Positions 6,811 through 60,429 of a stretch of 64,000 nt of DNA are shown piece after piece. Numbering within the stretch: the first letter of the stretch is position 1; every line of letters starts with the position of its first letter. The notes under the pieces were generated by a model. The model had not been told where the DNA came from and did no database searches. It worked only from the letters and a program-made list of their open reading frames with translations. Position numbers and translations under genes: made by a program. The DNA lies in NCBI GenBank assembly GCA_022897995.1, contig GCA_022897995.1_4763.1; one strand, 5' to 3'. The DNA comes from a phage.

Positions 6811-6825
6811 GAATCACCCCGCTAA

Positions 6826-8544
6826 TTATTGTGCTTGCTCTGGAAGTGCTTGTATATTTTCTATAGTAGCACCCCATTTAACGGCATTTAAACGAGCTTT
6901 GTGCATATCGTCTTCTCCGACTATTGCCGCAAAACCCTTTTTAGCGTGGAAATTCGCCCATGTGTTATATGCTAGTGCACCTACGCGTTTTGCTGTGTCG
7001 TGTTCAACTTCATCAACCATCAGCATTGTGCGGAAAGGTGCAAATGCTACATCTGGGTTATCGTCTTGTGTCCATGAACCACCATTAAACGACACCTGCC
7101 ACCTGAACATCTCACCAGACGGAATTTGATTAATTCTCAACTTTAGAGATCTTGTTTTCTGGTTTTTCTGAGTTACGTCTAGTGGAACCTGATATCTAGC
7201 CGCTTGTCGTTCTCTACCATCATTCATCCTATGCCATGCGGTAACAACAAGCATAACCGGAATTGTGTTTGATGTTTTAATAAAACTAACATCAACTAAA
7301 AGTTCCATATCATAGCTACCAGATTTAGGCGCAACCCACCAATGGTCGGCATCAGCTTGTCGATCTGGCTCTTTAATCTGTGGTGTGCATCCATAGTTAT
7401 CATGAATGACATACTTCCACGGAATGTAAAAAGCACCACCGCCAGTTCCTGGATTTGTAACTTCGAGTAGATTTTGTGCAGTGGTAAACACGCTGGACAC
7501 GCGAGGGAAAGCATAAATGGTAGCACCACCAGTGTGATCGCTGATCTGTAACCATTCGGTCCATCGATCAGTTCTCTTTGTATAGGAACGGTGATACATT
7601 ACGCCATCAATGCTTGTTGCGATCTGCAATACATGATCTTTACATGCATGAACATCTACAGAACCATGCGTTTGTGTTCCATTTGGGCGGTTTGCGGACC
7701 CCTCAAAATAACAGAAACGACCCTGTTTCGTCAAGGAATTTAGGTCTAGCGTTTCTGGCGAAATTTCCGGTAGACGTTTACCCAGACTGGTTAACATCGC
7801 CTCCTGATCACCATTTAAACCACCGCCACCGCTTCCTTCCCCGCTTTGAGAGTTCCACTCACGCCATGCACCATTGTGTCGGATACGAGAGTAAACACCA
7901 CCATCAATAGAACGGACCACTTGAAGAATGCTACCATCGACGACATATACATCTGCGGACCCCTTATTCGCCATCATTGGAGGTTTGCCATAGGTTGCAT
8001 CACCTACCGGATAGCGTCCGGGTGATGTTGTTACATCCAGATTATTAATCGGATTCGTCGTAGTCCATTTTACTTCAATTGCAGATAGACGCTGCGCAAC
8101 GTTCGCTAATACTTCTGGCACTGGAAACACTAACGATTCTTGAGTTTCATCTGAATACGTGATCTCTAGAGTCCAGTTGCGATCGTCCTCGGACAAGTTC
8201 GCTTCGATTCTAGCAATACCACGACCATTTTCGCCCTTCTCACCAGGAATACCCTGTTCGCCCTGAATAACCCAGGTCATATCGACCCATTTGGAATTAT
8301 CGTATGGAGATTGCGACGTTTTACCCGTCCATAATTGGAGTTTAGCACCACAAACAATAATTGTTTTTAGTCGCTCCAATTCTGGAAAATGGGTGTTGAA
8401 ATATGCGTCTCGTTCCCCTTCATTTTCGAAACGGTGAGTATTTTTAATTCCGCTAGGTACGTTAGTTCCGATCTGAATACCGCCACCAGAACAACCACCA
8501 CTCACGGAACCAGCATTAATGATAGCTTGTGGATTTAGCTTCAT
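6826..8544 (-). CDS. collagen-like repeat containing protein, possible fibre or decoration protein (~572 aa)
   Basis: ATG 8544 after GGGGG RBS (ORF track starts at TTG 8568); Gly-X-Y run GEQGIPGEKGENGRG; repeated motif (ILQVVRSIDGGVYSRIRHNGAWREW / VLQIATSIDGVMYHRSYTKRTDRWTEW); Gly-rich linkers. Confidence 0.6.
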   Translation of the reverse strand: MKLNPQAIINAGSVSGGCSGGGIQIGTNVPSGIKNTHRFENEGERDAYFNTHFPELERLKTIIVCGAKLQLWTGKTSQSPYDNSKWVDMTWVIQGEQGIPGEKGENGRGIARIEANLSEDDRNWTLEITYSDETQESLVFPVPEVLANVAQRLSAIEVKWTTTNPINNLDVTTSPGRYPVGDATYGKPPMMANKGSADVYVVDGSILQVVRSIDGGVYSRIRHNGAWREWNSQSGEGSGGGGLNGDQEAMLTSLGKRLPEISPETLDLNSLTKQGRFCYFEGSANRPNGTQTHGSVDVHACKDHVLQIATSIDGVMYHRSYTKRTDRWTEWLQISDHTGGATIYAFPRVSSVFTTAQNLLEVTNPGTGGGAFYIPWKYVIHDNYGCTPQIKEPDRQADADHWWVAPKSGSYDMELLVDVSFIKTSNTIPVMLVVTAWHRMNDGRERQAARYQVPLDVTQKNQKTRSLKLRINQIPSGEMFRWQVSFNGGSWTQDDNPDVAFAPFRTMLMVDEVEHDTAKRVGALAYNTWANFHAKKGFAAIVGEDDMHKARLNAVKWGATIENIQALPEQAQ

Positions 8545-8551
8545 ATAATAA

Positions 8552-8860
8552 TTACCCCCGTTTAGCAAGATACACGGTTACAGTAGAATCATTGGAAACA
8601 GATTTTACTTTTGCCCTAATAAATGACCATAATGTTTCAAACGCTCCACCATCAGTTGCATATTCATTACCATCAGCTTTCAATTCTGAAATAGTGAACC
8701 AACCTTTGCCATCTAAGGAACCTTCTAACGAGGCTTCCGCAATGACTTTTTGCCCTTCCCTTGCACCTTCTACGGTCATTTGTACTGTCATATGCGTACT
8801 ATGAACGCAGTTTACCGACGCGGAAACGGCTGGAGTTTTGGTCTTTATAAGTGTGTGCAT
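8552..8860 (-). CDS. hypothetical late protein (102 aa)
   Basis: AAGGGGAG RBS then ATG 8860; TATAAATA late promoter ~39 nt upstream. Confidence 0.55.
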   Translation of the reverse strand: MHTLIKTKTPAVSASVNCVHSTHMTVQMTVEGAREGQKVIAEASLEGSLDGKGWFTISELKADGNEYATDGGAFETLWSFIRAKVKSVSNDSTVTVYLAKRG

Positions 8861-17065: not shown

Positions 17066-20379
<3,314 letters not shown>

Positions 20380-26831: not shown

Positions 26832-28634
26832 TTAACCTACCCTTAACCAGCGATGAACGGTGCGATATGGAGGAAGAATACCCATCATTGATGGATCAGC
26901 ATTTCCAGAATTAACTTTTACGATATCCTCTCTATATTTCGTAAACGCTGGACCTGCCGCATCAGGATCAACTTGGCAGCCACCAATGATAATTGACCCT
27001 GTATCGTCTTTCACCAAAACACGATCGCTGGATTGTAATTCAGGAATCATATCTTTCTTGATTTGATAGGCAACTTCACCACCAGTACCACCAGCGGTGT
27101 GTGTAGGTTGTCCATGAATATCAAGATCGTTATTGTTTAATGCAAAATTCTGGTCGCTGGCATCGGAAGACCAACCAGCAAGAAATTCTCCTTCCGCATA
27201 CCGAACCCAGATACCAAACCCCATATAGGTCGCTGGGTTAGCTGGGTTATGTGCGTTTTCGTATATCGTGCCGACCGGATGGAAAATATCAAACAGTGAA
27301 TATATATCCATAATTCGACCTGAATACTCTTCTGCTGGACGAGTGTTTTTCTGGCTAGGATTCTGGAAGTCTGTATATTCAATTTGTTTTGTTAAATTAA
27401 CTTCGTCTTCATTATTGAGATAAATCTTGTCTGCTTTTTCTTTAATTCCGCCGACACCATCCCATTCTAATAGAGTTCCGATATCGTTATTAAACCAACG
27501 AATTGTTATAGTATCTCTATTGTCCAACGCTTTAGCTAATTTAATCCCTGTTACAATGCTATTCTCATCAAATACCAGTGAATAATCTTCTCCAGACTGT
27601 ACCCACTGACCGCCAGCAAGTGCGCAACTCTCTTCGGTTTCTCCGTCAGCACCTTCACAGACAAACGAAGGAAGATCAGCATCACCAGCTTTAATCATTT
27701 GAGTACCATTTATTAATAACTCAAATGAATTTGGGTTAATTATATCACGTTTACTAACGCCCAAATCAGCATTGGTAAATTCTTTTTTCTTCGATAAATC
27801 ACCCACCCACACTTCACCAGGAATAGTTTCGAGTGCTGTCATTCCGGTATCATATACTCTAATTGTGTGCGTGATATAACTAGATCGGAATGATGCAATC
27901 CCGTCCATATATGTAATAATTTGAACGGTGTCACCAGCCGAACAAGGAAAACGAAGTTTTATGCTTTTGCCATCAAGTTCAACAAGTGATCCATCCTCAC
28001 CGATTGAACCGTAGTTAGAGTCATTACTAAAAGACTTGCCATAATATAAAAGGTTTCCTCGATAATATACTTCAACATTTCGAGTGTTATATGTGTTAGA
28101 ACCAAATACATTAGGGAAATCTGTTTGCCCTTCTGTGGCAATATAAACTTCCTTAGCTACTGTGCTTAGATCAGACGTGGTGATCGTGTCAACTCGCTTG
28201 TTTTCGATATATTCCCAGCGTCCAGGCGCACAATAAACCAATTCAACATCCATGAAATCTTTATACAATTCTCGGTCGATTGGTGATCCTTTAATTGTAT
28301 CGCCTTGTGCTGGCTTAAGTGTTACGTTATGAGACGCCCAAGAGCGCCAAACATCACGAAGTTTAATTGTCTTGTTATAATCACCAACTCCACCTTTAGG
28401 AAGCTCTACCGACACCGCGTTGTTTGTTGTATTGATAGCCCACGCATCACCAAAATTAGGCTTTAATAATGGATCTGTGTGCGTTTTCCATGCACCGGAT
28501 GCGTGGGGGGTATCGCCATCCCCCAGCTTAGTATAAAGTTCAGAAAAGTTGTCGTTGATCTTTTGACCGCCTTTTCTTAGATAATCACCCGTACCGTCAT
28601 CTACAACGTTACCGATATTAATTAATTGTTTCAT
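26832..28634 (-). CDS. 10: baseplate wedge subunit and tail pin gp10
   Basis: 600 aa; N-terminus GNVVDDGTGDYLRKGGQKINDNF shared with gp9/gp12 N-termini as in T4. Confidence 0.85.
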   Translation of the reverse strand: MKQLINIGNVVDDGTGDYLRKGGQKINDNFSELYTKLGDGDTPHASGAWKTHTDPLLKPNFGDAWAINTTNNAVSVELPKGGVGDYNKTIKLRDVWRSWASHNVTLKPAQGDTIKGSPIDRELYKDFMDVELVYCAPGRWEYIENKRVDTITTSDLSTVAKEVYIATEGQTDFPNVFGSNTYNTRNVEVYYRGNLLYYGKSFSNDSNYGSIGEDGSLVELDGKSIKLRFPCSAGDTVQIITYMDGIASFRSSYITHTIRVYDTGMTALETIPGEVWVGDLSKKKEFTNADLGVSKRDIINPNSFELLINGTQMIKAGDADLPSFVCEGADGETEESCALAGGQWVQSGEDYSLVFDENSIVTGIKLAKALDNRDTITIRWFNNDIGTLLEWDGVGGIKEKADKIYLNNEDEVNLTKQIEYTDFQNPSQKNTRPAEEYSGRIMDIYSLFDIFHPVGTIYENAHNPANPATYMGFGIWVRYAEGEFLAGWSSDASDQNFALNNNDLDIHGQPTHTAGGTGGEVAYQIKKDMIPELQSSDRVLVKDDTGSIIIGGCQVDPDAAGPAFTKYREDIVKVNSGNADPSMMGILPPYRTVHRWLRVG

Positions 28635-29485
28635 GTAGCAACCCCGATTTTAATAGTGTCTGTGGCTTTAACTGCTAAACGAATATTTTCGCCAGTAGCC
28701 TTATACTCTGCATATACTTTATCGCCGGAACCAATGAAATAACGAACCGTGTATAATTCGTCTTCTGTTTTCTGTAAAACCGCATATTCTGTCGCGTAAA
28801 CTTTTCCGGCTCTGGCATCAATCATCAATAGAGTTTCGCTTGAGCGCATTTTTGAACCCGTCGTATTGCTAGCGGTTGTTAGTAGTTTAATTGATACATA
28901 TTCTGTTTTTGCTGCAATAGCAACGTTGGTTGCAACTCCAGTTACATTAACTGTCCTATCTAGTGGTGTGGTTGTGTCGGTAAACATACTTTCGATGCCC
29001 AGCCGCCAGGTAACTCTACTACCTTCGACGGCAGTACACCAGACGGTGACTTTTGAGAAAGGTTGAGTTATTACCGCGTCACCGGAATACCCGCTAATAG
29101 AATCTCCTGCTTGAGTTCTAATGTTTAGTGGTGTTGTTGCCGAAAAGCTACCGTTACTATTTATGAACACAACACCCTCACCAACTTTAGCTTTAGGAAG
29201 GATTGCTATTAATGCGCCTTGAGTTGTGTCAATATCATGCAGACTGCCAATCTCTACCGCCGTTCCTGCATAATTTTGTCGTGGGTGTTTCTGATAGTAT
29301 CCAGTGGCATGAATAACCATTCGACCAGCACCATGATCAATCTCTTTTAGACGTTGGTCCGCAAATGCGTCATAGATCGAATCAAAGTTATCATTAATTT
29401 TAACGCCACCGTCATATAAGATATCACCAGTCGATGGATTGCCGACTGTGCCAGTGTCTATTCTTTTCTTTGGAACTTGTGCCAT
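28631..29485 (-). CDS. 9: baseplate wedge tail fiber connector gp9
   Basis: 284 aa; ..KRIDTGTVGNPSTGDILYDGGVKINDNF.. matches T4 gp9. Confidence 0.85.
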   Translation of the reverse strand: MAQVPKKRIDTGTVGNPSTGDILYDGGVKINDNFDSIYDAFADQRLKEIDHGAGRMVIHATGYYQKHPRQNYAGTAVEIGSLHDIDTTQGALIAILPKAKVGEGVVFINSNGSFSATTPLNIRTQAGDSISGYSGDAVITQPFSKVTVWCTAVEGSRVTWRLGIESMFTDTTTPLDRTVNVTGVATNVAIAAKTEYVSIKLLTTASNTTGSKMRSSETLLMIDARAGKVYATEYAVLQKTEDELYTVRYFIGSGDKVYAEYKATGENIRLAVKATDTIKIGVAT

Positions 29486-37927: not shown

Positions 37928-39727
37928 TCACCCAAGATCAATACGGCTACCATCAATTTTAACTGTACCCGATGCGATATCTTTAACGCTTGCGCCACAA
38001 TTACGGGACCAGTCACCATTAACCTGATCTGATTTAGTGCCATTGACGGTCATATTAAAATTACCCTCAACGGTTAAATCATAGTTACCTTTAATTGTCT
38101 CGGTAGTGTTACCCTCGATCATTAATTCAGCATTACCCTTGACGTTAGCCGTCAAATTAGCGTCAAGCTGTGCGATAACATCACCGACAACATGCATATT
38201 TGCAGTACCCTCAACGGTCTGATTAACATTACCACGAACAAATTCAGTAACGTTTCCATCAACGGTTTGCATTACATTACCCATATAATAAACTTGCGCG
38301 TCACCTTCAACAACAACTTGCAGATTTCCTTTAACGTTGACTTTGCGGCCTTGCTTAACGATCAAATAGTCATCACCTTCAATCTTTTCTACCCTCGTTC
38401 CGTCCGGTCTGGTTTCTTCAAATGTACCAGAAGGATGTTTGCGGTGATAACGTTCGTGAGAAGGAGTATCATCAATCTCGATAATATGACCGCTCTCTGA
38501 CTCGTACACATGGTTATAAGGATACCTTGCAGAATACGAACTCTTAGGCTCTTTAAACATGATTCGTGTGTCTTGTGGGGTAAATGGTGCTTCTGGGTCT
38601 TCTTCTGCTCTCTGCGTCTTATAGGCAGCAATACGGGCATTTCTCAAACGTGCTCGCGGATCATCAGAAATTGATTCCTCTTTCTTTGGAGCAATTACGC
38701 CATATGATTCTAAGTTACCAGTTAAAATAATTTTAGATACACGGCTTGAACGTCCTGGAGTTTGGTTAGCCCATACCGATTGACGTAATCCATCATAGGC
38801 TTGTTTCCATTCTTCCGCTAACATCGCAGCAAGACTATTCTTAAATTTACCCAATCCACCAACACCCATTTGAAACGCCATATTTTCTAATGCCATACGA
38901 CGAGAAGCATTACACTTATTATAGACAGGTGCAATTCGTGGATGTTTGCGCATATCACGACGAGTCTTTTCTATATCGTCAGCAAATACTTTACTAACTT
39001 CTTCGGCTGTAAGTCTTCCGTTTGTAACTTCACGCCCTACCAGCTTAGAAAGTTCATTATTGATAATACCCAGATCACTGGTTTTCTTATAAATGATCAA
39101 ATGCCCGATGCCTATTGTCGGATATCCTTCTGAATCAAGATACCATTTCTCGCGATATCCCTCATCGCCCCGCAGCATTTTTTCTATTGTGTATTCTGGG
39201 TTATCGTCAACCGGAATTTGGTCTAATGGCTCGTCGTCTGGATTTACTGCAAATCCAGTGTTTTCATCTCGAATATAGACACTATCAGGTTTTGTTGTTT
39301 GTCCGGTTTCTGGGTTAATACCGCCACGAGCAAGAATATTAACATCATTACCAATATAACGAGGATATGCACCAGAAGGGTCGCAAAAACCTTCTGTAGT
39401 GAGTGGTTTCTCTGTATATTGTCCGGCAATAGTACCCAGAATAACGCAGTTTAAATAACGTTCATCTAAAGCCAAACCAAATACCATTGAACCTTCAACA
39501 ATACCAGTAGGACTTTGACCTATACCGGAGATCGCCGCGCTTGTAATATCTTGTACTGGCGTAATCCATAATAGATCTTCGGTTGGAAGACCTTGAATGT
39601 CACCGTGTGCGGATAGCGAAGGATGTATACCATGAATCCTAACCTGAACACGCCCCAGCATTAACGGGTCTTCCCTGTTTTCTACAATTCCGGTAAACCA
39701 TTTAACGGAGTTATTAAACATTAGCAT
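37928..39727 (-). CDS. 5: baseplate hub subunit and tail lysozyme gp5 (cell-puncturing device)
   Basis: 599 aa; lysozyme-domain motif ..SEGYPTIGIGHLI..; C-terminal beta-helix repeats (VNVKGNLQVVVEGDAQV..). Confidence 0.9.
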   Translation of the reverse strand: MLMFNNSVKWFTGIVENREDPLMLGRVQVRIHGIHPSLSAHGDIQGLPTEDLLWITPVQDITSAAISGIGQSPTGIVEGSMVFGLALDERYLNCVILGTIAGQYTEKPLTTEGFCDPSGAYPRYIGNDVNILARGGINPETGQTTKPDSVYIRDENTGFAVNPDDEPLDQIPVDDNPEYTIEKMLRGDEGYREKWYLDSEGYPTIGIGHLIIYKKTSDLGIINNELSKLVGREVTNGRLTAEEVSKVFADDIEKTRRDMRKHPRIAPVYNKCNASRRMALENMAFQMGVGGLGKFKNSLAAMLAEEWKQAYDGLRQSVWANQTPGRSSRVSKIILTGNLESYGVIAPKKEESISDDPRARLRNARIAAYKTQRAEEDPEAPFTPQDTRIMFKEPKSSYSARYPYNHVYESESGHIIEIDDTPSHERYHRKHPSGTFEETRPDGTRVEKIEGDDYLIVKQGRKVNVKGNLQVVVEGDAQVYYMGNVMQTVDGNVTEFVRGNVNQTVEGTANMHVVGDVIAQLDANLTANVKGNAELMIEGNTTETIKGNYDLTVEGNFNMTVNGTKSDQVNGDWSRNCGASVKDIASGTVKIDGSRIDLG

Positions 39728-40348: not shown

Positions 40349-40822
40349 ATGGGAGGATCTAACACTTATAAGGGCAAATATGTTCCTGAGAATAAGGAAA
40401 AGTATAAAGGGGATATACGGAAAATCACATACCGTTCAAGCTGGGAATTGCATGTTTTTAAATGGTGTGACCGTAATCCTCATGTGGTTAAATGGGGATC
40501 TGAGACCGTTGTAATTCCTTACAATTCATCAACAGACGGTAAGCGTCACAGATATTTTGTTGATGTTTATGTTAAGTTTGATGATGGAAAAGAGCATTTA
40601 TGGGAAATTAAGCCAGCCAAAGAGACTAGACCACCAGAAAAGCCAAAGCGATTAACGACTAAAACAAAGCAGCGTTATATGATGGAGGCTTGGACGTGGA
40701 CGAAAAATACCGAAAAGTGGGCAGCGGCAGTAGCATTGTGTAAAAAACATAATATGGAATTTAAAATCATAACCGAACACACATTAAAAAAGGTGTTCGG
40801 TTTTAAAGGTTTAAATAAGTGA
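40349..40822 (+). CDS. 4: putative head completion protein gp4
   Basis: 157 aa; T4 position between 53 and 2; RBS AAAGGGTG; assignment by synteny and size. Confidence 0.55.
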   Translation: MGGSNTYKGKYVPENKEKYKGDIRKITYRSSWELHVFKWCDRNPHVVKWGSETVVIPYNSSTDGKRHRYFVDVYVKFDDGKEHLWEIKPAKETRPPEKPKRLTTKTKQRYMMEAWTWTKNTEKWAAAVALCKKHNMEFKIITEHTLKKVFGFKGLNK

Positions 40823-41833
40823 GTTCTTAAAGTCTTTTACTATAGTTTGATAGCATTGGTCGGGATACCCATTCTCGACCGCTATTTTTCTTGTTTTTCT
40901 ATCGCTAGGCATACCATTTTCTTTCCACAGCTTATATATTTCGTCATAATATACCCAGACACCAGAATTTTTTCTGGGATTTAATTTTATTATGTCGTTT
41001 CCATTCTCCTTTATGTACTTATTTTTCATTTCTTTAACGATGTAATCATATGACCTATCTGGGTATCCACGTTTAATGGCCTCGCGCTTGAATACATATT
41101 GACCCGGCATATTCAGATCAATCCATAATGCATATAACTCATCAAATTTTCCCCATGTTTCTTTCGGTTTTTGTGAATCTGAAAGTAGTTTGGCGATTCT
41201 TTGTTTTTCTTCGTCTGACTTTGAGTTTATAGTTTGTAGAAGCCTTTCTCTTCGTAATTTAAGTTTTTCCTCTGATCTATTACTTAACGCCTTTGATATT
41301 TTCTTGCCACGTTCTTTATACTTTCTTTCTCGTTCTTCATCGCTCAAGTTTCTAAAATGTTCTTTAACGGAATCAGTTCTTTTCTTATGGCGACGTTTTA
41401 ATTCTTCTTCATCAAGAGAAGCCATGAAACGTTTTTGTGATTCCGACATTTTCAGTCTAGATTCTTCCGTGTATACATGTTTTCGCTTTGCCTCTTCTGA
41501 TATACCAGCAAGTTTCAACACAATATCTTCTGGCAATTCCTTCATAATATCAATTCGGGTATTAAACATCATAACAACAGACTTCCAAATGGAATTTGTT
41601 GCTTTACTGAAATAGTAGTGTGCCATCATATGACGAACGGTGTTCAAGTGAACAGCATTAAAATCATGAATTTTAAGGTCTTCATATTCCTTCCAAATTG
41701 ATTTTGGTAGAATATGATGCCTCTCTAATTCCCCATCCTTATCTGGGTTTGCACAAATTTCTAGATACTTTTCTAAATACTTGATATCTGCATTCGGAAA
41801 CTGCATCAAAATTTTGTTCTTAATATCTTGCAT
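40811..41833 (-). CDS. free-standing HNH homing endonuclease (Mob-like)
   Basis: 340 aa; HNH motif ERHHILPKS..NAVHLNTVRHMMAH; repeated C-terminal DNA-binding-like modules (RGYPDRSYDYIVKEMKN / NGYPDQCYQTIVKDFKN); AGGAGG RBS; opposite strand between genes 4 and 2. Confidence 0.8.
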   Translation of the reverse strand: MQDIKNKILMQFPNADIKYLEKYLEICANPDKDGELERHHILPKSIWKEYEDLKIHDFNAVHLNTVRHMMAHYYFSKATNSIWKSVVMMFNTRIDIMKELPEDIVLKLAGISEEAKRKHVYTEESRLKMSESQKRFMASLDEEELKRRHKKRTDSVKEHFRNLSDEERERKYKERGKKISKALSNRSEEKLKLRRERLLQTINSKSDEEKQRIAKLLSDSQKPKETWGKFDELYALWIDLNMPGQYVFKREAIKRGYPDRSYDYIVKEMKNKYIKENGNDIIKLNPRKNSGVWVYYDEIYKLWKENGMPSDRKTRKIAVENGYPDQCYQTIVKDFKNSLI

Positions 41834-46898: not shown

Positions 46899-47113
46899 AA
46901 ATGACCTTTTATATCTTAGCAAGTATCATGCTTGTGATCTCTTCTGCCTTATTTGCATTTCTTACCGTTTGGGGGATCTGCACTGACGCGAAACCGTGGG
47001 ATATAGTAGAAAATACGGTTATGTTTATTATCAGTGTCATGTGTCTTTTTGATGCATTTAACTCTATCAAGGAAGAAGATCAAAAACGTCGCGAGAGAAA
47101 GCGATATAAATAA
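46895..47113 (+). CDS. small membrane protein (72 aa)
   Basis: GAGGT RBS then ATG 46895; hydrophobic N-terminal two thirds. Confidence 0.5.
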   Translation: MKMTFYILASIMLVISSALFAFLTVWGICTDAKPWDIVENTVMFIISVMCLFDAFNSIKEEDQKRRERKRYK

Positions 47114-48941: not shown

Positions 48942-49124
48942 ATGAAAAAGATTAATTGGTTAGCGAACATAGGCGCGGTATGCGCCTTTAACATCCTCGG
49001 ATGGATAATGTTACATTTTGATGAGCGAGTTTCAAAATGTGACGGTGTATTGATTCTCGGATCGGCTAGCATATTCATTATGCTGTATGCAATTGCTGTT
49101 GACTTAAGCCGCGAGGATTGTTAA
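48942..49124 (+). CDS. small membrane protein (60 aa)
   Basis: AAGG RBS then ATG 48942; hydrophobic. Confidence 0.45.
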   Translation: MKKINWLANIGAVCAFNILGWIMLHFDERVSKCDGVLILGSASIFIMLYAIAVDLSREDC

Positions 49125-49125
49125 T

Positions 49126-49323
49126 ATGACGCTCAAGAGTATGTTTTTCAACTTCATAGGTGCTTCCATTCTTTCAATGCTATATCTTGTGACTGTATGG
49201 ATGGGCGACTATGAATTAACTAACGATGAAAATCTGACCGTGTTTACTGTCTTGACGATGATCATTTACACTGTCTTTCTTGTCTTGGATTTTATTGTGT
49301 TTCTTTACAAAACGGTGACTTGA
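49126..49323 (+). CDS. small membrane protein (65 aa)
   Basis: GAGGA RBS then ATG 49126; two predicted TM helices. Confidence 0.45.
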   Translation: MTLKSMFFNFIGASILSMLYLVTVWMGDYELTNDENLTVFTVLTMIIYTVFLVLDFIVFLYKTVT

Positions 49324-49520
49324 TGACGATTAGGAAAAATGATATTGGTTTTGTTGCGGGTATCGCTAGCGTCTTTACTGTTGTTATTTTGCTAATGCTT
49401 TTACCCGGTGTATTCTCTGACCAGATTGAATTGTATGTAGCTTTTATCTGTTGCATTTATACTTGGCTTGCAATGTTTGTGATTAGTCTAATTATGCAAT
49501 TCGTCGTTAACAAATTTTAG
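49323..49520 (+). CDS. small membrane protein (65 aa)
   Basis: ATG 49323 after GGTGA (ORF track starts TTG 49320); hydrophobic. Confidence 0.45.
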   Translation: MTIRKNDIGFVAGIASVFTVVILLMLLPGVFSDQIELYVAFICCIYTWLAMFVISLIMQFVVNKF

Positions 49521-49541
49521 ATTTAATGTGAGGATTATATT

Positions 49542-49862
49542 ATGAGCAAACTGTTTGAAACTCCGCGTGAAATTCTGATTGATAAGCTGAAAGAACGTGG
49601 TTTTAAAATTAAAGATGCAACCAAATACAGCCGAATTGATGAAATTAAGTTGCATTCTCTTGATGAACTAGTAGAATATGTTGCGGCAGTGGCTGATCCG
49701 CAGTTTGATGTGATTGTAGGTGACGTTGAATATCTCGATAATGTATATTCATTCTTCACTTATGGTAAAATTGTGTCTGTGAAAATTTCATTCTGTGAAA
49801 ATGTGGAGGTGCTTGCTAGTGAACCAGAAAAACCAACTGACAACGGTCCTACGGCAGCGTAA
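49542..49862 (+). CDS. hypothetical protein (106 aa)
   Basis: GTGAGGA RBS then ATG 49542. Confidence 0.55.
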   Translation: MSKLFETPREILIDKLKERGFKIKDATKYSRIDEIKLHSLDELVEYVAAVADPQFDVIVGDVEYLDNVYSFFTYGKIVSVKISFCENVEVLASEPEKPTDNGPTAA

Positions 49863-50133
49863 CAAGGAAGACCGTCTGATTTATGCGCTGGCGGTTATCC
49901 TTGAAAAAGAATTACCGGATCTTGAGGTAGTTTTTACTGACAGACCAGTAGGCCAACGTTACGGAGGATATGATAGCCTAGTTTATCCATCCTATAGCCT
50001 TGAAATGTGGGTAGAAGATTTTAAAAACTTGGCTGATGCATCTAAACCGCTTTATTTGTGGGATGTTGAGTATAATTGCGATCCCACTTGGCCTGGTATT
50101 AATGTTTATGCGTCTATGACTTTAAAGGTGTGA
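49801..50133 (+). CDS. hypothetical protein (start uncertain)
   Basis: ORF-track ORF overlapping the upstream gene by ~60 nt; no clear RBS; true start may be downstream. Confidence 0.3.
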   Translation: MWRCLLVNQKNQLTTVLRQRNKEDRLIYALAVILEKELPDLEVVFTDRPVGQRYGGYDSLVYPSYSLEMWVEDFKNLADASKPLYLWDVEYNCDPTWPGINVYASMTLKV

Positions 50134-50135
50134 TA

Positions 50136-50294
50136 ATGGTTGAACAAATGTTAACTTCACTGGTAATGGCTTTCTGTATGGTTGTTGTTATGATTGCTGT
50201 GATCCCTAAAGAGAGAATGAATCTGCTTGTCGCTGTCTGTGTGGGCGTTGTTTGTGGATGGTTTGGGATCGCGCTAGAACAAGCTCTGCGTTGA
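50136..50294 (+). CDS. small membrane protein (52 aa)
   Basis: AAGGTG RBS then ATG 50136; hydrophobic MVEQMLTSLVMAFCMVVVMIAV..; below ORF-track cutoff. Confidence 0.4.
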   Translation: MVEQMLTSLVMAFCMVVVMIAVIPKERMNLLVAVCVGVVCGWFGIALEQALR

Positions 50295-50356
50295 TTAACA
50301 AAGCGGGTAGGGGTAATTTACTACCCGCATTAAATTAGCTCACTGGAGGGCTTTCT

Positions 50357-50545
50357 GTGGCGTTTTATCTATGGTTGCTTATAGTATGCTTTGTAATGGG
50401 GTTATGCTTCTATACTGGCGTATTCTGTTTGATCGACTGGATAAACGGTGGATTCTCTAATATCATTTTGCTAGCCGGATCAATCGCCTCGTTTCTGTTG
50501 ATATGGCTTTTTTCTTATTTGTTTGGTGAATGGGGTTTATTATGA
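50357..50545 (+). CDS. small membrane protein (62 aa)
   Basis: GGAGGG RBS 6 nt before GTG 50357; hydrophobic. Confidence 0.45.
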   Translation: MAFYLWLLIVCFVMGLCFYTGVFCLIDWINGGFSNIILLAGSIASFLLIWLFSYLFGEWGLL

Positions 50546-50721
50546 ACAAATATATGTTTTGGGCGACCCTTGCCTATGTTGTGATTGCGGTAGTCTGGGG
50601 ATTCTGTGTTATTGTCGCTTCCCTGATCTGGTGGGAATCGCTTGGCGCGGGTTGTCTGATTAGCGGTGCATCCTCTCTTATCATGGGTGTGATTGTTGGT
50701 TTTCTTATTTGGGAGGATTGA
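50530..50721 (+). CDS. small membrane protein (63 aa; alternative start ATG 50542)
   Basis: Overlaps the upstream gene; two predicted TM helices. Confidence 0.4.
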   Translation: MGFIMNKYMFWATLAYVVIAVVWGFCVIVASLIWWESLGAGCLISGASSLIMGVIVGFLIWED

Positions 50722-50723
50722 CA

Positions 50724-50939
50724 ATGGTTTTCTTCGGTCTTATTATAATGGTGCTTAATGTCATTTGTGGTGTTGCTATGTTAGCTATGGCCTTTACTGT
50801 TCCTATGTCTGTTGACAGCGCCGCATCCGTAGGTGTGTTGGGAATTGTAAACCTGTTTACTGCCATAGCATGTTGGATCACCGGACGCGATGAGGTAATG
50901 TATTACTTTTATAAACGTAAACAGAGAAAAGGAAAATAA
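50724..50939 (+). CDS. small membrane protein (71 aa)
   Basis: GGGAGGA RBS then ATG 50724 (ORF track starts TTG 50709); two TM helices. Confidence 0.5.
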   Translation: MVFFGLIIMVLNVICGVAMLAMAFTVPMSVDSAASVGVLGIVNLFTAIACWITGRDEVMYYFYKRKQRKGK

Positions 50940-50940
50940 T

Positions 50941-51132
50941 ATGAGATTTGCATTTGGTTTTACCGTGATGTTGATTATTGCTCTGAGTATGTGTACCGGA
51001 ATGCTTGTATTTGGTCTTGCAAACGGGTTTAGCATTTATAATAATCAGTGGGTTGATTGGGGAATGGTTGCTGTTAATGCGATCCTGATTGGTGCTAATA
51101 CAAGAACTCTATGCAGGATCACAGGAATCTAA
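50941..51132 (+). CDS. small membrane protein (63 aa)
   Basis: AAAGGAAA RBS then ATG 50941; hydrophobic. Confidence 0.45.
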   Translation: MRFAFGFTVMLIIALSMCTGMLVFGLANGFSIYNNQWVDWGMVAVNAILIGANTRTLCRITGI

Positions 51133-51160
51133 ATATTATCACTCACAAAGGGGGTGAATA

Positions 51161-51550
51161 ATGTTTAAATTATCTCAAAGAAGCAAAGATCGGCTTGTTG
51201 GTGTACATCCAGACCTGGTAAAAGTCGTTCATCGTGCATTAGAACTGACTCCGGTCGATTTTGGTATTACGGAAGGTGTGCGTAGTCTCGCAACGCAAAA
51301 GAAATATGTTGCGGAAGGTAAATCTAAGACTATGAAATCTCGTCATCTTCATGGTTTCGCGGTTGACGTTGTAGCGTATCCGAAAGATAAGGATACATGG
51401 AACATGAAATATTACCGCATGATCGCTGATGCATTTAAACAAGCTGGTCGAGAATTGGGTGTTCCTGTTGAATGGGGCGGGGATTGGACCAGTTTCAAAG
51501 ATGGTCCTCATCTACAATTGCCTCACAGCAAATACCCAGATCCACAATAA
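51161..51550 (+). CDS. peptidase M15 family peptidoglycan hydrolase (L-alanyl-D-glutamate peptidase-like, putative endolysin)
   Basis: 129 aa; zinc-ligand motifs SRHLHGFAVDV and DGPHLQL; N-terminal GVHPDLVKVVHRA..VDFGITEGVRS resembles T5-type endolysins; GGGGG RBS. Confidence 0.65.
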   Translation: MFKLSQRSKDRLVGVHPDLVKVVHRALELTPVDFGITEGVRSLATQKKYVAEGKSKTMKSRHLHGFAVDVVAYPKDKDTWNMKYYRMIADAFKQAGRELGVPVEWGGDWTSFKDGPHLQLPHSKYPDPQ

Positions 51551-51611
51551 TTATTAACCATCAACGGGGAGACAATCTAAGGATCTCTCCCCGTTCACTG
51601 GAGACTTGACA

Positions 51612-52097
51612 ATGAATATTGATGTAAAATTAGAAAGTAAAGATTTGATTTATGCTGCGTGTGTTTCTGCCGTAGATGGCATCATAGAACGCCGTAAGCG
51701 ACGCAATTTTGCTGATGACCTAGATTCCATCGTCTCAATCAATTTAGGCCGTCAGACAGGGCATACAGACGCTACAATCAAGTTATATGACCATTATACG
51801 CGAAAAGGCTATAGTGTCTTTATCGTCTCAACGACGCGGGAACATGTCAAAACGATCCGAGATCGCGGTCGCGGTGAAAATGTAAATATTTCAAATGTAG
51901 ATTGCACGTCGATCCGAACTTTCCTGAATCCGATCACATGGCGAGGTCGTAGTCTTGACAGAACAATTTTTATCCTAGATACTACCATGCGCGGATTTAC
52001 TGACAGCGTATTGCAGTTTTTAGAGTTAAATCGACGTAGTGTTGGGGTGGGTAATGTAGAAGACCAACCTATTTTCATTGGCTTAGGTATCAACTAA
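51612..52097 (+). CDS. hypothetical protein (161 aa)
   Basis: GGAGA RBS then ATG 51612 (ORF track starts TTG 51606). Confidence 0.5.
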   Translation: MNIDVKLESKDLIYAACVSAVDGIIERRKRRNFADDLDSIVSINLGRQTGHTDATIKLYDHYTRKGYSVFIVSTTREHVKTIRDRGRGENVNISNVDCTSIRTFLNPITWRGRSLDRTIFILDTTMRGFTDSVLQFLELNRRSVGVGNVEDQPIFIGLGIN

Positions 52098-52232: not shown

Positions 52233-52649
52233 ATGGAATTTAAAGCAATTCAAATCATGAAAGGTGAGCATAAAGGTACTATTATCGGTGGATATTTCGC
52301 CCCTATGATTCTGGTATCCGAACCTAAAGCACTGATCGGCGCTAAAGTAATTGTTAGTAAAACTTTCGCAGAAGACCATGTGATCACCGCAGAAGACGTC
52401 GATTCGCTGGCACTGCACACAACTAGCTTCCGTCCTGTTATTGTAGATAATGGTGCTCCTGTTGTCGAGGGAGGCCAGCATTTGAATGTTAACGTATTGT
52501 TACGAGAAATGTTGCTGGACGCGGTTGAACATCCTGAGAAGTACCCGCAGCTTACAATTCGCGTTTCTGGTTACGCAGTGCGCTTCAATAGTCTGACTCC
52601 AGACCAGCAGCGTGACGTTATCGCGCGTACCTTTACCGAATCTCTCTAA
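52233..52649 (+). CDS. grcA: autonomous glycyl radical cofactor (GrcA/YfiD-like; T4 Y06I-like)
   Basis: 138 aa; C-terminal glycyl-radical signature ..[33 protein letters not shown]; AGAGGTG RBS. Confidence 0.75.
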
Positions 52650-53455: not shown

Positions 53456-53650
53456 ATGCAAGTTTATACCAATAGCAATAAAGGCAATGATATCACACCG
53501 GGAAAGATGTATGATTTTACCCCGGCACGAGACGACGAACATCCACCGACTATCGGGTATATTGAAGATGATGCGGGGTTTCGTATTACGATCCTTCTTG
53601 ATGGTGGATGTTCTCATCTTCGCGGTGATCGTTGGGAGTTAGTACCATGA
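53456..53650 (+). CDS. small protein, CSHL-motif paralog 1 (64 aa)
   Basis: AGGAG RBS; motif GYIEDDAGFRITILLDGGCSHLRGDRWELV shared with the next two ORFs. Confidence 0.5.
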   Translation: MQVYTNSNKGNDITPGKMYDFTPARDDEHPPTIGYIEDDAGFRITILLDGGCSHLRGDRWELVP

Positions 53651-53892
53651 TGTATGTGATGACACCTTATAGTAACCGCAAGTATATTACACCAAATGCA
53701 CTGTATGAATATACACCACATGAAAGATTTGCGAATAGTGGTTATATCCGTGATGATAAGGGACACCAGATTTTTATTTGTCTTAAAAATTGTGCACACT
53801 TAGACGGTCGAACATGGACACTGGTCGAAGAACCAAAACAACCTGAGAATAAAGGTCTTTGGAATGTGCTAAAAAAATTCTTGAAAAAGTAG
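53647..53892 (+). CDS. small protein, CSHL-motif paralog 2 (81 aa)
   Basis: ATG 53647 overlapping upstream stop (ATGA); motif GYIRDDKGHQIFICLKNCAHLDGRTWTLV. Confidence 0.5.
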   Translation: MMYVMTPYSNRKYITPNALYEYTPHERFANSGYIRDDKGHQIFICLKNCAHLDGRTWTLVEEPKQPENKGLWNVLKKFLKK

Positions 53893-53921
53893 TTGACAGC
53901 ATGAAACGGGGGTAGTAATAT
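53893..53921 (+). promoter_or_regulatory. sigma70-type early promoter with spacer hairpin (PeSL-like)
   Basis: TTGACA 53893-53898, TAATAT 53916-53921; inverted repeat GGGGGTAGTAATATACCCCC. Confidence 0.6.
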
Positions 53922-53949
53922 ACCCCCATCGAAACAAAGGAGTATTAAA

Positions 53950-54288
53950 ATGAGTGTTAAAGAAGTATTTGTTTATACTGACTATGACAGGTGCGCCTAT
54001 CTCACTGCTGGAAAACTTTACCGTTGTGAGATTATTCATGGTACGCTAGGTCGAATTATGTGCGATCCGATTACAAAATTGTGGAAAAACAATCCTAGTG
54101 AGCGAGAAACTATTATTAACCTAGATTCAGACGGTTGTTCACATTTGGACTATAGAAAATGGCATATCGTGACACATGATGCTTATGGTATTCATCTTGC
54201 TACTAAAGAATTGACTATTGACAAGTTCAAGTTTAAAGAAATCCCGTTTGTATACTGGCTTCGCAATTTGTTTAAGAAAGGAGAATAA
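53950..54288 (+). CDS. CSHL-motif paralog 3 with N-terminal extension (112 aa)
   Basis: AAGGAG RBS; motif ..IINLDSDGCSHLDYRKWHIV. Confidence 0.5.
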   Translation: MSVKEVFVYTDYDRCAYLTAGKLYRCEIIHGTLGRIMCDPITKLWKNNPSERETIINLDSDGCSHLDYRKWHIVTHDAYGIHLATKELTIDKFKFKEIPFVYWLRNLFKKGE

Positions 54289-54797: not shown

Positions 54798-55388
54798 ATG
54801 TTAAAAGTTCTAAAAGCGATAGTATTGAGTCTGTCACTAGCCGTTGGTGCTACACACGCATCGACTAGCGCACCGATCAAAAAAGCGCCGATAGACAACT
54901 TTACAGCACACCAACTAGATAATTTACATTTCGCCTATCAATACGGCGAGCAATTCGAGAAAAGCGGTAAGTTGAAAAAGGACCATCCGAATATTCGCTA
55001 TAACGGAAAGGGTTTAGGTCACATCCTGGCGGGTATCGCATGGCAAGAATCAAGCGCGGGTGCAAACTTAGCACCAAAGAAAAATCATCATGCTTATGGA
55101 TTATTTCAAAATTACCTTAAAACGGTGAAAGCGAAAAATGCAAAGCGCGGTGTTAAAATGAGTGATCGCCAGACTATCAACTTTATCATGAATCGCGAGG
55201 TTTCTGCATTCTACGCGATGGATGAGTTAGCATACTGGCTGGATGTTCGAAACGGTAATATCCGACTCGCGCTGGCTTCTTACAATGCTGGATGGAACTA
55301 TAAAGCCGGTTTAGGTTATGCTGATGACGTATTAAAAAAAGCTAACCATCTAAAGAGTAAAGGCATTCTTAAAACTAAACGCTATTGA
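54798..55388 (+). CDS. secreted lytic transglycosylase-like (SLT/lysozyme-like) protein
   Basis: 196 aa; N-terminal signal peptide MLKVLKAIVLSLSLAVGATHA; catalytic-region motif GIAWQESS and ..SYNAGW..; AGGAG RBS. Confidence 0.55.
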   Translation: MLKVLKAIVLSLSLAVGATHASTSAPIKKAPIDNFTAHQLDNLHFAYQYGEQFEKSGKLKKDHPNIRYNGKGLGHILAGIAWQESSAGANLAPKKNHHAYGLFQNYLKTVKAKNAKRGVKMSDRQTINFIMNREVSAFYAMDELAYWLDVRNGNIRLALASYNAGWNYKAGLGYADDVLKKANHLKSKGILKTKRY

Positions 55389-57534: not shown

Positions 57535-57542
57535 TATAAATA
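57535..57542 (+). promoter_or_regulatory. T4-type late promoter (TATAAATA) on the plus strand
   Basis: TATAAATA 57535-57542, 34 nt upstream of ATG 57576; inside the loop of inverted repeat CCCCAGAT..ATCTGGGG. Confidence 0.55.
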
Positions 57543-57575: not shown

Positions 57576-57878
57576 ATGTCATTTATTCGTAAAACTCTAA
57601 CAGCGGCAATATGCTTGACTGCGGTCGGAAGCGTCAGTGCTGATCAATATGATCCAACTGGTGACTTTACTGATTATTTCGACGGTGCAATGATAGTATA
57701 TGTAAACAAAATATCTCCTTCCATTGAAACCAGCCAGAAATTTCATGCCCATATTATGAAGATGTATGCTCGTAGTAAATGTATGGATTCTAAGCAGTGT
57801 TTTATTATGGGGGAATATGCCGCACAACAATTTGTTATGTTGCATAATGTGGAGAATCGAGAACATGAAATTCAGTGA
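57576..57878 (+). CDS. secreted hypothetical protein with signal peptide (100 aa)
   Basis: GGGGGA RBS; signal peptide MSFIRKTLTAAICLTAVGSVSA. Confidence 0.5.
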   Translation: MSFIRKTLTAAICLTAVGSVSADQYDPTGDFTDYFDGAMIVYVNKISPSIETSQKFHAHIMKMYARSKCMDSKQCFIMGEYAAQQFVMLHNVENREHEIQ

Positions 57879-58284: not shown

Positions 58285-60429
58285 ATGCCAGAAGTAAAAG
58301 AAACTAGCATTAACACAACCATTTGGCTTCCTCATACTTTCGCGTGTTCAATTACTGCCGAATCGGAAGACCCATCTAAGACGAGGAAGGGTTATCATTG
58401 GAAAAAGGATGGTAAATTGGTCACTATGACCGATGCTCCGTCTTTTCCATTGAAGACAGTAAAGGAAGAGGACAAAACAGGCTGGTCTGTTAATGTTCGT
58501 GGGTATGCTCAAGATGACAATGAGTTTACTGGTGATTCTGTTGATATCGGTACGGAAAATTTCACCTTTGAATTGTTTGATAATCCATATGTAGAACATG
58601 TATACCCGCCACGGTCATTTATTGTTGGTGATGAAATAAAGGCAAAGATTGTTTTTCGTAGTCATATCCAGAATAATATTTCTGTAGACCTTTATTACAA
58701 CGATGGTTTGGTTGATTCCATTGATGGTGATCTAGGTTTAGACCATCGTGAATTTAAAATTGCAAAATTTGCGTGGCCTGAATTTTCCGGCACATATCGA
58801 ATGGAATTGAGCGATGAACATGATGATGTAAAATTTGTATATCCTTTCTTTGCTAGTATTGTCGAAAGTAAGGAAGTGTTTAACGTTCAAAAATACGCAC
58901 CTGCTTATTTTACCGTAGAAGATGATGCGCCGAATCAGGCCGAATATACTATTGTCCGCTACCGATTAGAGCGTGGTGATGGTACTTTGGTATATGAATC
59001 TAAAGATAAGACCTTGTATGTAACAAAACATGCTCAAGAGTCTGACGCCGGAGAATATGTTGCTTTTGTGCGTGCATATAAAGTTGTTAATGGTCCTGGG
59101 TCTGGTGAGCAATTCATCGATGGCGATAAACATCGCTTTACGGTAAATGTTAAGGAAAATGAGTTTTTCAGCCATGATTTTAGTGCTGTTGATTTTCGTT
59201 ATCCTTCTGGATCTACTGTAAACCTTGATATGCCAGTGATGCAAGCCGATAGCTCGTGGAACCGCCATTACGGTATGCTTAGTAACAACGTTTACTTTAC
59301 GTGGATGCTTGGCGGTAAGAAACTTCAAAGTAAAAAATATGGTGATGAAGGATACGACCGAATCACCCTATCTGGATTGCAATATGATAACAGCGTTGCG
59401 CTTCAATTGTTGGTTGCTCCTGCCAATCCAGCGGGTGAGCAGGTGATTCCTAACGGTCGTCCACTGTTTTATGACCGTCGTATGCTTGAGATTTATGATA
59501 AAGAGTATGATTATCGTAATATTGAAGTGGGTGAACCGATTGTTCTCAAGATCGTAGATCCTGAACCGCCAGCTAGTGATGATCCTGAACAAACACGAAC
59601 TTTGGTTATCACCAAAAACGACGTTAAAGTAACGGAACTACCGCTAGGCACTAAGGAATATAAGATCACTGACTCCGCTGACCGAGACCATAACGGAATC
59701 TGGGCGCATGAGTATCGTGATAGTCCGAGTAAAGATCCATTTAGTGCACATACCGATTTTGATATTGCTGGTCGCGCAACTTATCATGTTGAAGTTGTGC
59801 CAAATATGGAATTTGATGGTCCTCATCCGGTACAGGTGACGGAAGGGGATACGTTGACTATTGAAGCAACCATGCTTAAACCGCCAGCCTCATATGTTCC
59901 GACTTATGAGTTTAGCAAGAGTGGAGTTAAATTGCCAATTGCTGATGCAAGGACGCCGATTTATCGTAAGGCAAATGTTACCTTAGATGATGCTGGTGTT
60001 TATCGATTTGTTGCATTTGCTGATAAAAACAACAACGAAACTCTAGACCCAGGTGAGATCATCGGCTATACAAAATATGTTCAAGTTGTGGTTAATAAAC
60101 GTCCTGTTCGACCAGATGAACCTAAACCGGAAGTTAAAATTGTTACTCTGTTTAATGATTTTAGTAAAGGCCGATTTAGTCCGTGTCCGTATTGGGTAAT
60201 TGATGAACTTGTCGAACTGATGGAAGATCCGCATGGCTGGATGGGTAAACTTGAAGATGCTGTCTACTATGACTGGCAGATCACTATCTTTAATGAGTTC
60301 TTAAAAGGTAAAGATCTGTATCTTCAAGACTCCTGTAATGGTTATTGGGCTATTGTTCGTCAGAAAGACATGACAATCGAAACTGGTTACGGTCGATTTA
60401 AACACTATCACACAAATGGATTAGAGTAA
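58285..60429 (+). CDS. large Ig-like domain protein with Hoc-like C-terminus (candidate virion surface/decoration protein)
   Basis: 714 aa; AAGGGGG RBS; Ig-like signature DDAGVYRFVAF; C-terminal ..CPYWVIDEL..DSCNGYW.. weakly resembles the Hoc capsid-binding domain. Confidence 0.55.
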   Translation: MPEVKETSINTTIWLPHTFACSITAESEDPSKTRKGYHWKKDGKLVTMTDAPSFPLKTVKEEDKTGWSVNVRGYAQDDNEFTGDSVDIGTENFTFELFDNPYVEHVYPPRSFIVGDEIKAKIVFRSHIQNNISVDLYYNDGLVDSIDGDLGLDHREFKIAKFAWPEFSGTYRMELSDEHDDVKFVYPFFASIVESKEVFNVQKYAPAYFTVEDDAPNQAEYTIVRYRLERGDGTLVYESKDKTLYVTKHAQESDAGEYVAFVRAYKVVNGPGSGEQFIDGDKHRFTVNVKENEFFSHDFSAVDFRYPSGSTVNLDMPVMQADSSWNRHYGMLSNNVYFTWMLGGKKLQSKKYGDEGYDRITLSGLQYDNSVALQLLVAPANPAGEQVIPNGRPLFYDRRMLEIYDKEYDYRNIEVGEPIVLKIVDPEPPASDDPEQTRTLVITKNDVKVTELPLGTKEYKITDSADRDHNGIWAHEYRDSPSKDPFSAHTDFDIAGRATYHVEVVPNMEFDGPHPVQVTEGDTLTIEATMLKPPASYVPTYEFSKSGVKLPIADARTPIYRKANVTLDDAGVYRFVAFADKNNNETLDPGEIIGYTKYVQVVVNKRPVRPDEPKPEVKIVTLFNDFSKGRFSPCPYWVIDELVELMEDPHGWMGKLEDAVYYDWQITIFNEFLKGKDLYLQDSCNGYWAIVRQKDMTIETGYGRFKHYHTNGLE

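Follow-up and report, generated by a model that had tools for sequence, protein, structure and literature searches.

An M15C zinc peptidase nearly identical to EndoRB49 as the probable endolysin at the gene e position of an RB49-like phage

In phage T4, as established by genetics, the enzyme for lysis from within is the lysozyme encoded by gene e. The DNA analysed here, a stretch of 64,000 nucleotides from a phage (hereafter, the window), encodes a 129-aa protein of a different kind, in which the initial annotation had recognised signatures of M15 zinc peptidases, leaving two readings side by side: the phage's endolysin, or an extra wall hydrolase. The questions raised by this locus are therefore which of the two roles the protein has, and how its gene relates to T4 gene e.

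The M15 protein and its orthologue EndoRB49

The gene is located as follows.

51161-51550, plus strand: very probable endolysin gene, Zn2+ L-alanoyl-D-glutamate peptidase of the M15C type (Peptidase_M15_4), assigned from Pfam, PHROG and PDB matches and from the EndoRB49 orthologue

The ORF begins with an ATG, preceded at a distance of 7 bases by the strong ribosome binding site AAGGGGGTG. Within its product, the motifs SRHLHGFAVDV and DGPHLQL, already pointed out in the initial annotation, occupy residues 60-70 and 114-120, respectively. Searched against Pfam, the protein matched PF13539 (Peptidase_M15_4) over residues 55-119 with 46.8 bits (E=4.4e-12; curated cut-off, 25 bits), and against the PHROGs it matched PHROG 465, 'endolysin' (E=1.7e-68), with a weaker match to phrog_1768, a profile of 1577 positions. 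The same search in the PDB returned 23ri (E=1.4e-86) and 8q2g (E=5.6e-82), the latter deposited as 'Peptidoglycan L-alanyl-D-glutamate endopeptidase', as well as Serratia ChiX (E=1.7e-37) and EndoT5 of phage T5 (E=8.8e-22), with LysB4 and Listeria Ply500 also matching. Matches so far beyond chance, together with the ORF and both motifs, establish the M15-type assignment, and the suggested likeness to the N-terminus of T5-type enzymes is likewise borne out, residues 2-114 aligning with T5 residues 3-119.

Specifically, the M15 zinc triad H-x6-D...H is present as H62, D69 and H117, the catalytic D114 lies three residues before the last His, and the conserved active-site-proximal tryptophan, W109, is intact. 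The zinc and catalytic motifs align with those of ChiX and LysB4. In addition, no transmembrane domain, SAR domain or signal sequence was found in the 129-aa protein, whose maximum Kyte-Doolittle average over 19 residues is 0.81, with no segment reaching 1.6.

At this point a different substrate has to be considered, namely that the protein is a D-Ala-D-Ala carboxypeptidase or dipeptidase of the VanY/VanX kind, remodelling the wall rather than lysing it. The description line of PF13539 indeed reads 'D-alanyl-D-alanine carboxypeptidase', and the record of phage W115 annotates the orthologue under the same name; the nearest solved relatives (8q2g, ChiX, T5 and Ply500), however, are deposited or known as L-Ala-D-Glu peptidases, and we regard the carboxypeptidase reading as extremely unlikely.

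The specificity for L-Ala-D-Glu bonds can be approached more closely through the orthologue of the gene. The DNA around it is ~96% identical to RB49 and to 58 other Krischvirus records, and the window is for the most part collinear with RB49 in reverse complement, at ~42.9-100.4 kb; judged by its sequence, the source is an RB49-like phage (Krischvirus). The gene, kept in 59 Krischvirus genomes at 95-99% nucleotide identity, has as its RB49 orthologue RB49p102, annotated 'endolysin' (NP_891673.1), which encodes EndoRB49, and dozens of genome records annotate the orthologue as endolysin. The window protein is identical to NP_891673.1 at 127 of 129 residues (98.4%), the differences being E44A and K129Q. 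Since ChiX, T5 and LysB4 also carry Ala at the position equivalent to 44, E44A looks neutral and a functional change is not expected. The sequence of NP_891673.1 is that of PDB 23ri, so that solved structures are available for near-identical full-length sequences, 23ri at 98.4% identity and 8q2g at ~95%.

EndoRB49 has been cloned, purified and characterised as a Zn2+ L-alanoyl-D-glutamate peptidase (PMC10487532, PMC8140593). Its bond specificity was established by NMR (PMC8140593) and its lytic activity amounts to 3205 U/mg (PMC10487532). The Zn2+ ligands include H62 and H117; full activity requires W109, which lies close to the active site, the W109A variant retaining 5%, and the enzyme has no Ca2+ regulation, unlike EndoT5 (PMC10487532). 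Thermal resistance is also attributed to EndoRB49, in the part of a review that cites Mikoulinskaia 2018 (PMC8532960). With only two of 129 residues changed, we infer the same L-Ala-D-Glu specificity for the window variant, in agreement with the proposal of an M15 L-Ala-D-Glu peptidase in the initial annotation, which the published specificity and lytic activity of the 98.4% identical EndoRB49 support. In conclusion, the enzyme is already known: its near-identical orthologue is an endolysin characterised in both biochemistry and structure.

Elsewhere, the window departs from RB49. The large terminase subunit gp17 (17069-19885, minus strand) is 938 aa long against ~607 aa in RB49, and its extra ~330 aa (insert at ~18403-19394) split the Walker A motif between SRQLGK and TTAVAIF, the insert running from ALDVN to IPTHN; it begins with Ala, ends with His-Asn followed by Thr, and carries a LAGLIDADG_3 domain. 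By these sequence traits it resembles an intein carrying a homing endonuclease. The insert DNA occurs in only 12 Krischvirus records, four of which (FL15, PTE-Eco09, FL04) label the gene as a helicase, three as DnaB and one as replicative DNA helicase. A 340-aa ORF for an HNH-type homing endonuclease (40811-41833, minus strand; phrog_655, E=6e-15), close to genes 4 and 53, sits in a 1.1-kb segment without an RB49 counterpart. Three ORFs, of 310, 580 and 102 aa (5878-8860, minus strand), separate the major capsid gene 23 from gene 24, in a segment of which ~2.8 kb is without a nucleotide match in RB49; a short collagen-like G-x-x stretch is found in the 580-aa product and an alanine-zipper-like coiled coil in that of 310 aa. 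A 714-aa ORF (58285-60429, plus strand), largely absent from RB49, is found between rI.-1 and the next conserved ORF, and shows weak similarity to Hoc-like/Ig-domain proteins (phrog_1149, E=2e-9; Pfam Ig_3 below threshold). Apart from these differences, three tandem paralogous ORFs of 64, 86 and 112 aa (53456-54288, plus strand; phrog_6261 and phrog_15978) have in common, close to the C-terminus, a C-x-H-L-x(2-3)-R/K-W motif.

Genomic position and the T4-type lysis genes

The order of genes around the M15 gene was compared with that of T4, using the following two anchors downstream.

51606-52097, plus strand: vs.8 homologue, serving as downstream anchor of synteny; the T4 protein and that of the window share phrog_1488
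52233-52649, plus strand: vs.6, autonomous glycyl-radical cofactor (GrcA-like), second synteny anchor; 59% identity to T4 vs.6, E=1.8e-47

Along transcription, T4 has the order 3, 1, 57A, 57B ... e, ipIII, ipII, denV, vs.8, vs.7, vs.6 ... regB, vs.1, vs, tk.4 ... tk, rI.1, rI, and the window, like RB49, has 3, 1, 57A, 57B ... small ORFs, the M15 gene, vs.8, vs.6, nrdC.11 ... regB, vs.1, vs, tk.4, tk, rI. The vs.8 anchor relies on the shared phrog_1488, the direct BLASTP comparison of the window and T4 proteins being not significant (E=0.042). Because the flanking order matches that of T4, the peptidase holds the place of gene e, and we therefore interpret the locus as a non-orthologous displacement.

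As regards the surroundings, vs.6 is a free-standing glycyl-radical domain (PF01228, E=1.5e-16), T4 vs.6 being annotated as autonomous glycyl radical cofactor GrcA. Neither tRNA genes (ARAGORN) nor Rfam matches at gathering thresholds were found in the whole window (1-64000), and the cluster of tRNA genes that lies between e.8 and ipI in T4 is missing here from the corresponding region.

Among the small ORFs preceding the M15 gene, membrane proteins are numerous.

48942-51132, plus strand: eight small ORFs (54-76 aa), seven with two predicted transmembrane domains and one with one, interrupted by two non-membrane ORFs at 49542-50133

The initial annotation had placed such a run after the gene; it is in fact upstream, on the same strand, and the downstream genes vs.8 and vs.6 encode non-membrane proteins. 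Each of the eight ORFs is placed in a separate PHROG of unknown function, and no paralogy among them was detected by BLASTP (best E=0.015). As holin candidates they were rejected, Pfam holin matches staying at E=0.04-0.4 and 11-14 bits, far under the cut-offs of 27-29 bits; both the PHROG and the Pfam searches thus agree with the earlier statement that no holin can be assigned among the neighbouring small membrane proteins.

To look for the remaining lysis functions, the complete RB49 genome was used as a proxy, the window itself spanning only the equivalent of its ~42.9-100.4 kb. The relevant genes within the window are listed here.

37928-39727, minus strand: gp5 baseplate hub, with a lysozyme domain at residues ~189-320 (tblastn match at 38702-39187); Pfam Gp5_OB, Phage_lysozyme and Gp5_C
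54798-55388, plus strand: vs.1, whose N-terminus resembles a signal peptide, with an SLT lytic-transglycosylase domain (PF01464, 26.1 bits)
57576-57878, plus strand: rI antiholin, the lysis-inhibition partner of holin T (PF24205, E=1e-23)

The authentic T4 e protein, used as tblastn query, matched RB49 once and the window once, each time inside gene 5; hence, apart from the gp5 domain, no free e-type lysozyme was detected by this search in the complete RB49 genome or in the window. Queries representing lambda R, T7 amidase and P22 gp19 returned nothing beyond gp5 in either DNA by tblastn. This is in line with a review of T4-related phages, which lists RB49, phi-1 and RB43 among those 'with no apparent gene e' (PMC3014915). 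RB49 does encode a T-type holin (PF11031, E=4.5e-61; RB49 154972-155628, outside the span covered by the window), and its spanins are annotated as pseT.3 and pseT.2. The antiholin gene rI lies in the window itself, ~6 kb downstream of the endolysin gene, with an exact late-promoter motif TATAAATA at 57535-57542, 34 nt 5' of rI. The initial annotation had proposed to search the rest of the genome for an e-type lysozyme and holin t, and a canonical e lysozyme with a holin elsewhere, joined to a lack of lytic activity of the protein, would have spoken against the endolysin role; what RB49 offers is a T-type holin and no free e.

The spanin annotations of RB49 deserve a comment of their own. The RefSeq i-spanin pseT.3 (88 aa; positions 28606-29430, minus strand, of the segment L004, RB49 100001-150000) has no transmembrane domain as annotated, and a start 19 codons further upstream adds MSKLIYIVIISVLLGVGG, a plausible N-terminal transmembrane domain; the annotated start codon is thus probably wrong. 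Within pseT.2 (150 aa as annotated) lies an internal signal-like segment that terminates in the lipobox LSSC, suggesting an internal Met as the start of the true o-spanin.

The presence of two further wall-active domains brings up the possibility that the M15 protein is an accessory hydrolase and that the true endolysin is to be sought in the SLT-like vs.1, in the lysozyme domain of gp5 or in some protein not recognised as such. Vs.1 combines a signal-peptide-like N-terminus with an SLT domain above the Pfam threshold (cut-off for PF01464, 21.3 bits), and gp5 carries its lysozyme domain. Moreover, the searchable literature yielded no knockout data for the M15 gene, neither a knockout nor an amber mutant in an RB49-like phage, and no genetic proof that lysis requires it. 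Both vs.1 and gp5, however, are present in T4 too, where gene e does lysis from within according to the annotation of the T4 record. Indeed, T4 vs.1 likewise passes the SLT threshold (25.1 bits), and the SLT domain of vs.1 was noted earlier (PMC1524935); since vs.1 coexists with e in T4, we consider vs.1 a conserved accessory protein, not a replacement of e, and a candidate for a conserved periplasmic wall enzyme of T4-like phages. Further points against an accessory role are that RB49 has no free e (PMC3014915), that the M15 gene holds the e position, and that close relatives of the enzyme are the endolysins of canonical lysis cassettes. Taken together, these elements make an accessory role very unlikely.

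A role in the virion, as a lysin for DNA injection instead of lysis from within, can be weighed on the same genes. M15 domains do occur within large virion-associated proteins, as exemplified by the 1577 positions of phrog_1768. The window protein, in contrast, is a free protein of 129 aa with no structural-protein fusion, the virion already has the gp5 lysozyme, and the gene lies among non-structural genes, oriented as the early/non-structural cluster; the probability of this role is, in our judgement, close to nil.

Therefore, of the two roles between which the initial annotation had left the choice, that of endolysin is the one that stands. The 'extra wall hydrolase' is disfavoured because no free e-type lysozyme is found in RB49 or in the window, in accord with the published survey (PMC3014915), and the gene occupies the T4 e position. 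We conclude with high confidence that the gene encodes the phage's endolysin, a small, soluble single-domain Zn2+ metallopeptidase of the M15C type (LAS/VanY-like) which cuts the L-alanyl-D-glutamate bond and replaces T4 gene e. As read from the sequences, with holin and spanins seen in the RB49 proxy, the whole T4-type lysis apparatus appears to be present and the muralytic enzyme alone to have been exchanged.

These data depict the following scenario for the enzyme in lysis. H62, D69 and H117 hold the zinc, with D114 as catalytic residue and W109 beside the active site, as indicated by the sequence, and the enzyme would hydrolyse the L-alanyl-D-glutamate bond of the peptidoglycan stem peptide. 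Lacking a signal or membrane segment, the protein is expected, under the standard holin-endolysin-spanin model, to accumulate in the cytoplasm. As it has no hydrophobic segment, a holin is needed to reach the wall, which would become accessible only after the inner membrane has been opened by the T-type holin, whose gene lies elsewhere in the genome. The rI antiholin would hold back the timing of the holin, and the spanins would then disrupt the outer membrane. In RB49-like phages, the enzyme stands in for the T4 lysozyme at the equivalent locus.

Candidate control elements flanking the gene

With the enzyme itself already described, the sole addition to published knowledge concerns a possible leader control resembling that of gene e. 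The elements upstream of the gene are the following.

51123-51175, plus strand: predicted leader hairpin in which an arm located upstream pairs with the AUG (51161) and the Shine-Dalgarno run (GGGGG, 51150-51154) (-13.1 kcal/mol, z=-2.7)
51128-51135, plus strand: TCTAAATA, hypothetical late promoter with one mismatch to the T4-type TATAAATA, at -33 to -26 from the ATG, inside the 5' arm of the leader hairpin

The predicted leader fold, in which the AUG and part of the Shine-Dalgarno run are paired, is moderately unusual (z=-2.7). Among the 94 gene starts, the endolysin ranks second for pairing of the AUG and tenth for the initiation region as a whole. The leader sequence is identical in RB49, with one extra G in L006. 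The 59 Krischvirus genomes compared, to which IMG/VR added one Krischvirus, are 95-99% identical over a 360-nt query that includes the leader and thus too similar for an analysis of covariation.

As for the promoter motif, no exact TATAAATA is present within 4 kb upstream of the endolysin gene. An exact late promoter before the gene was therefore discarded, the nearest plus-strand TATAAATA motifs being at 47105 and 57535; the latter, before rI, is one of just two exact plus-strand matches in the window. Late motifs with one mismatch are not enriched in the window (95 observed, against 133 expected by chance), and TCTAAATA is the only position-2 variant near any gene start there. Exact late motifs in the window are found 28-39 nt before gene starts and position-1 variants 21-56 nt before them, and the 26-nt distance of TCTAAATA from the start codon fits that range of spacing. 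Position -13 varies among the late promoters of RB49, and in phage Aeh1 the sequence used is CTAAATA (PMC1524935), a core which TCTAAATA contains.

A comparable arrangement is known from T4 gene e, the leader of which contains exact TATAAATA motifs at -34 and -21. These motifs lie in the 5' strand of a hairpin masking the ribosome site; because of this masking, translation is poor on early read-through transcripts of e, but good on the late ones, in which the 5' strand is missing (PMC3014915). A late-promoter motif at -33/-34 inside a hairpin masking the ribosome binding site is thus a feature possibly common to both leaders, which differ in that T4 has two exact TATAAATA motifs, whereas the window leader has one motif with a mismatch. 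By analogy, on early read-through transcripts, entering for example from a sigma-70-like site at 50718-50746, the leader hairpin would mask the AUG and the Shine-Dalgarno run, and the late promoter-like TCTAAATA in the 5' arm would yield shorter late transcripts, free of that arm and translatable. That the endolysin gene acquired or kept such e-like leader control upon the swap to a zinc peptidase is a tentative proposal, which we think somewhat doubtful. If true, it would represent a convergent regulatory logic imposed by the toxicity of a premature endolysin, and a small addition to what is known of how T4-like phages avoid premature lysis.

A parallel arrangement, which speaks in favour of the proposal, is found in an RB43-like or KP15-like phage, the Klebsiella phage RCIP0020 (L086, 1440-1500): just upstream of its M15 endolysin gene, a terminator-like hairpin, formed by ATACCCTG ... 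CAGGGTAT and followed by TTTTT, has a 5' arm with which CATAAATA overlaps; late transcripts starting inside this arm could bypass the terminator.

A second hairpin was predicted on the 3' side of the gene.

51563-51595, plus strand: strong GC-rich hairpin just past the endolysin stop codon, without a U tract (-21 kcal/mol, z=-3.8), followed by the GGAG ribosome site of vs.8

It is conserved in RB49, and, as a modelled fold, it could possibly act as a terminator or as an mRNA-stabilising element. A 'terminator' feature is annotated in the GEC-3S record, and two in that of G2494, somewhere within the 3-kb matched segment.

Comparison with known endolysins

By comparing the window enzyme with characterised systems, the closest counterpart is EndoRB49, which has the same length, catalytic residues, genomic position and neighbours, and differs in E44A and K129Q only. 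Outside Krischvirus, the closest relatives are 62-66% identical and come from small phages (P2-like, Certrevirus); relatives at 63-66% identity belong to a holin-endolysin-spanin cassette, that of the P2-like phage Chuche.

The M15 endolysins of RB43-like and KP15-like phages, for example the lys product of Klebsiella phage RCIP0020, resemble the window enzyme in belonging to PHROG 465 and in replacing gene e in a T4-like genome, RB43 being listed as lacking that gene (PMC3014915). They differ in sharing only ~46% identity with it, below the P2-like and Certrevirus endolysins, and this suggests, as far as sequence distances can tell, separate acquisitions or a long divergence.

EndoT5 (PDB 2mxz, 8p3a) has in common with the window enzyme the M15C fold family, a single globular domain, the same bond and a similar N-terminal helix region, in keeping with the match over residues 2-114 at E=8.8e-22. 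It is only ~40% identical, and its longer loop after the conserved Trp binds a regulatory Ca2+. The spacing between W109 and D114 is ~11 residues shorter than that between W114 and D130 of T5, the T5 alignment ending at that point; this shorter loop is consistent with a lack of the T5 Ca2+ loop and with the reported independence of EndoRB49 from Ca2+ regulation.

ChiX of Serratia marcescens (PDB 5opz) is similar over its full length (E=1.7e-37) and shares the SRHLxGxAVDV and KDGPHxQL motifs, but is a bacterial protein, which acts with a holin-like protein in chitinase secretion, not in phage lysis.

Finally, the T4 lysozyme, a GH24 muramidase, has the same role and locus as the window enzyme, within the block from 57B to vs.8/vs.6/regB/tk/rI, and is likewise soluble, cytoplasmic and dependent on holin T. 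In contrast, the two are unrelated in sequence and fold, and T4 lysozyme cuts the glycan strand, whereas the target of the window enzyme, which needs zinc, is the stem peptide. The locus offers a clean textbook case of non-orthologous gene displacement in a conserved T4-type lysis system, in which holin T, antiholin RI and spanins were retained and the wall enzyme was switched, at the same locus, from a glycosidase to a peptidase, an exchange that fits the view that holin T is not tied to one particular endolysin.
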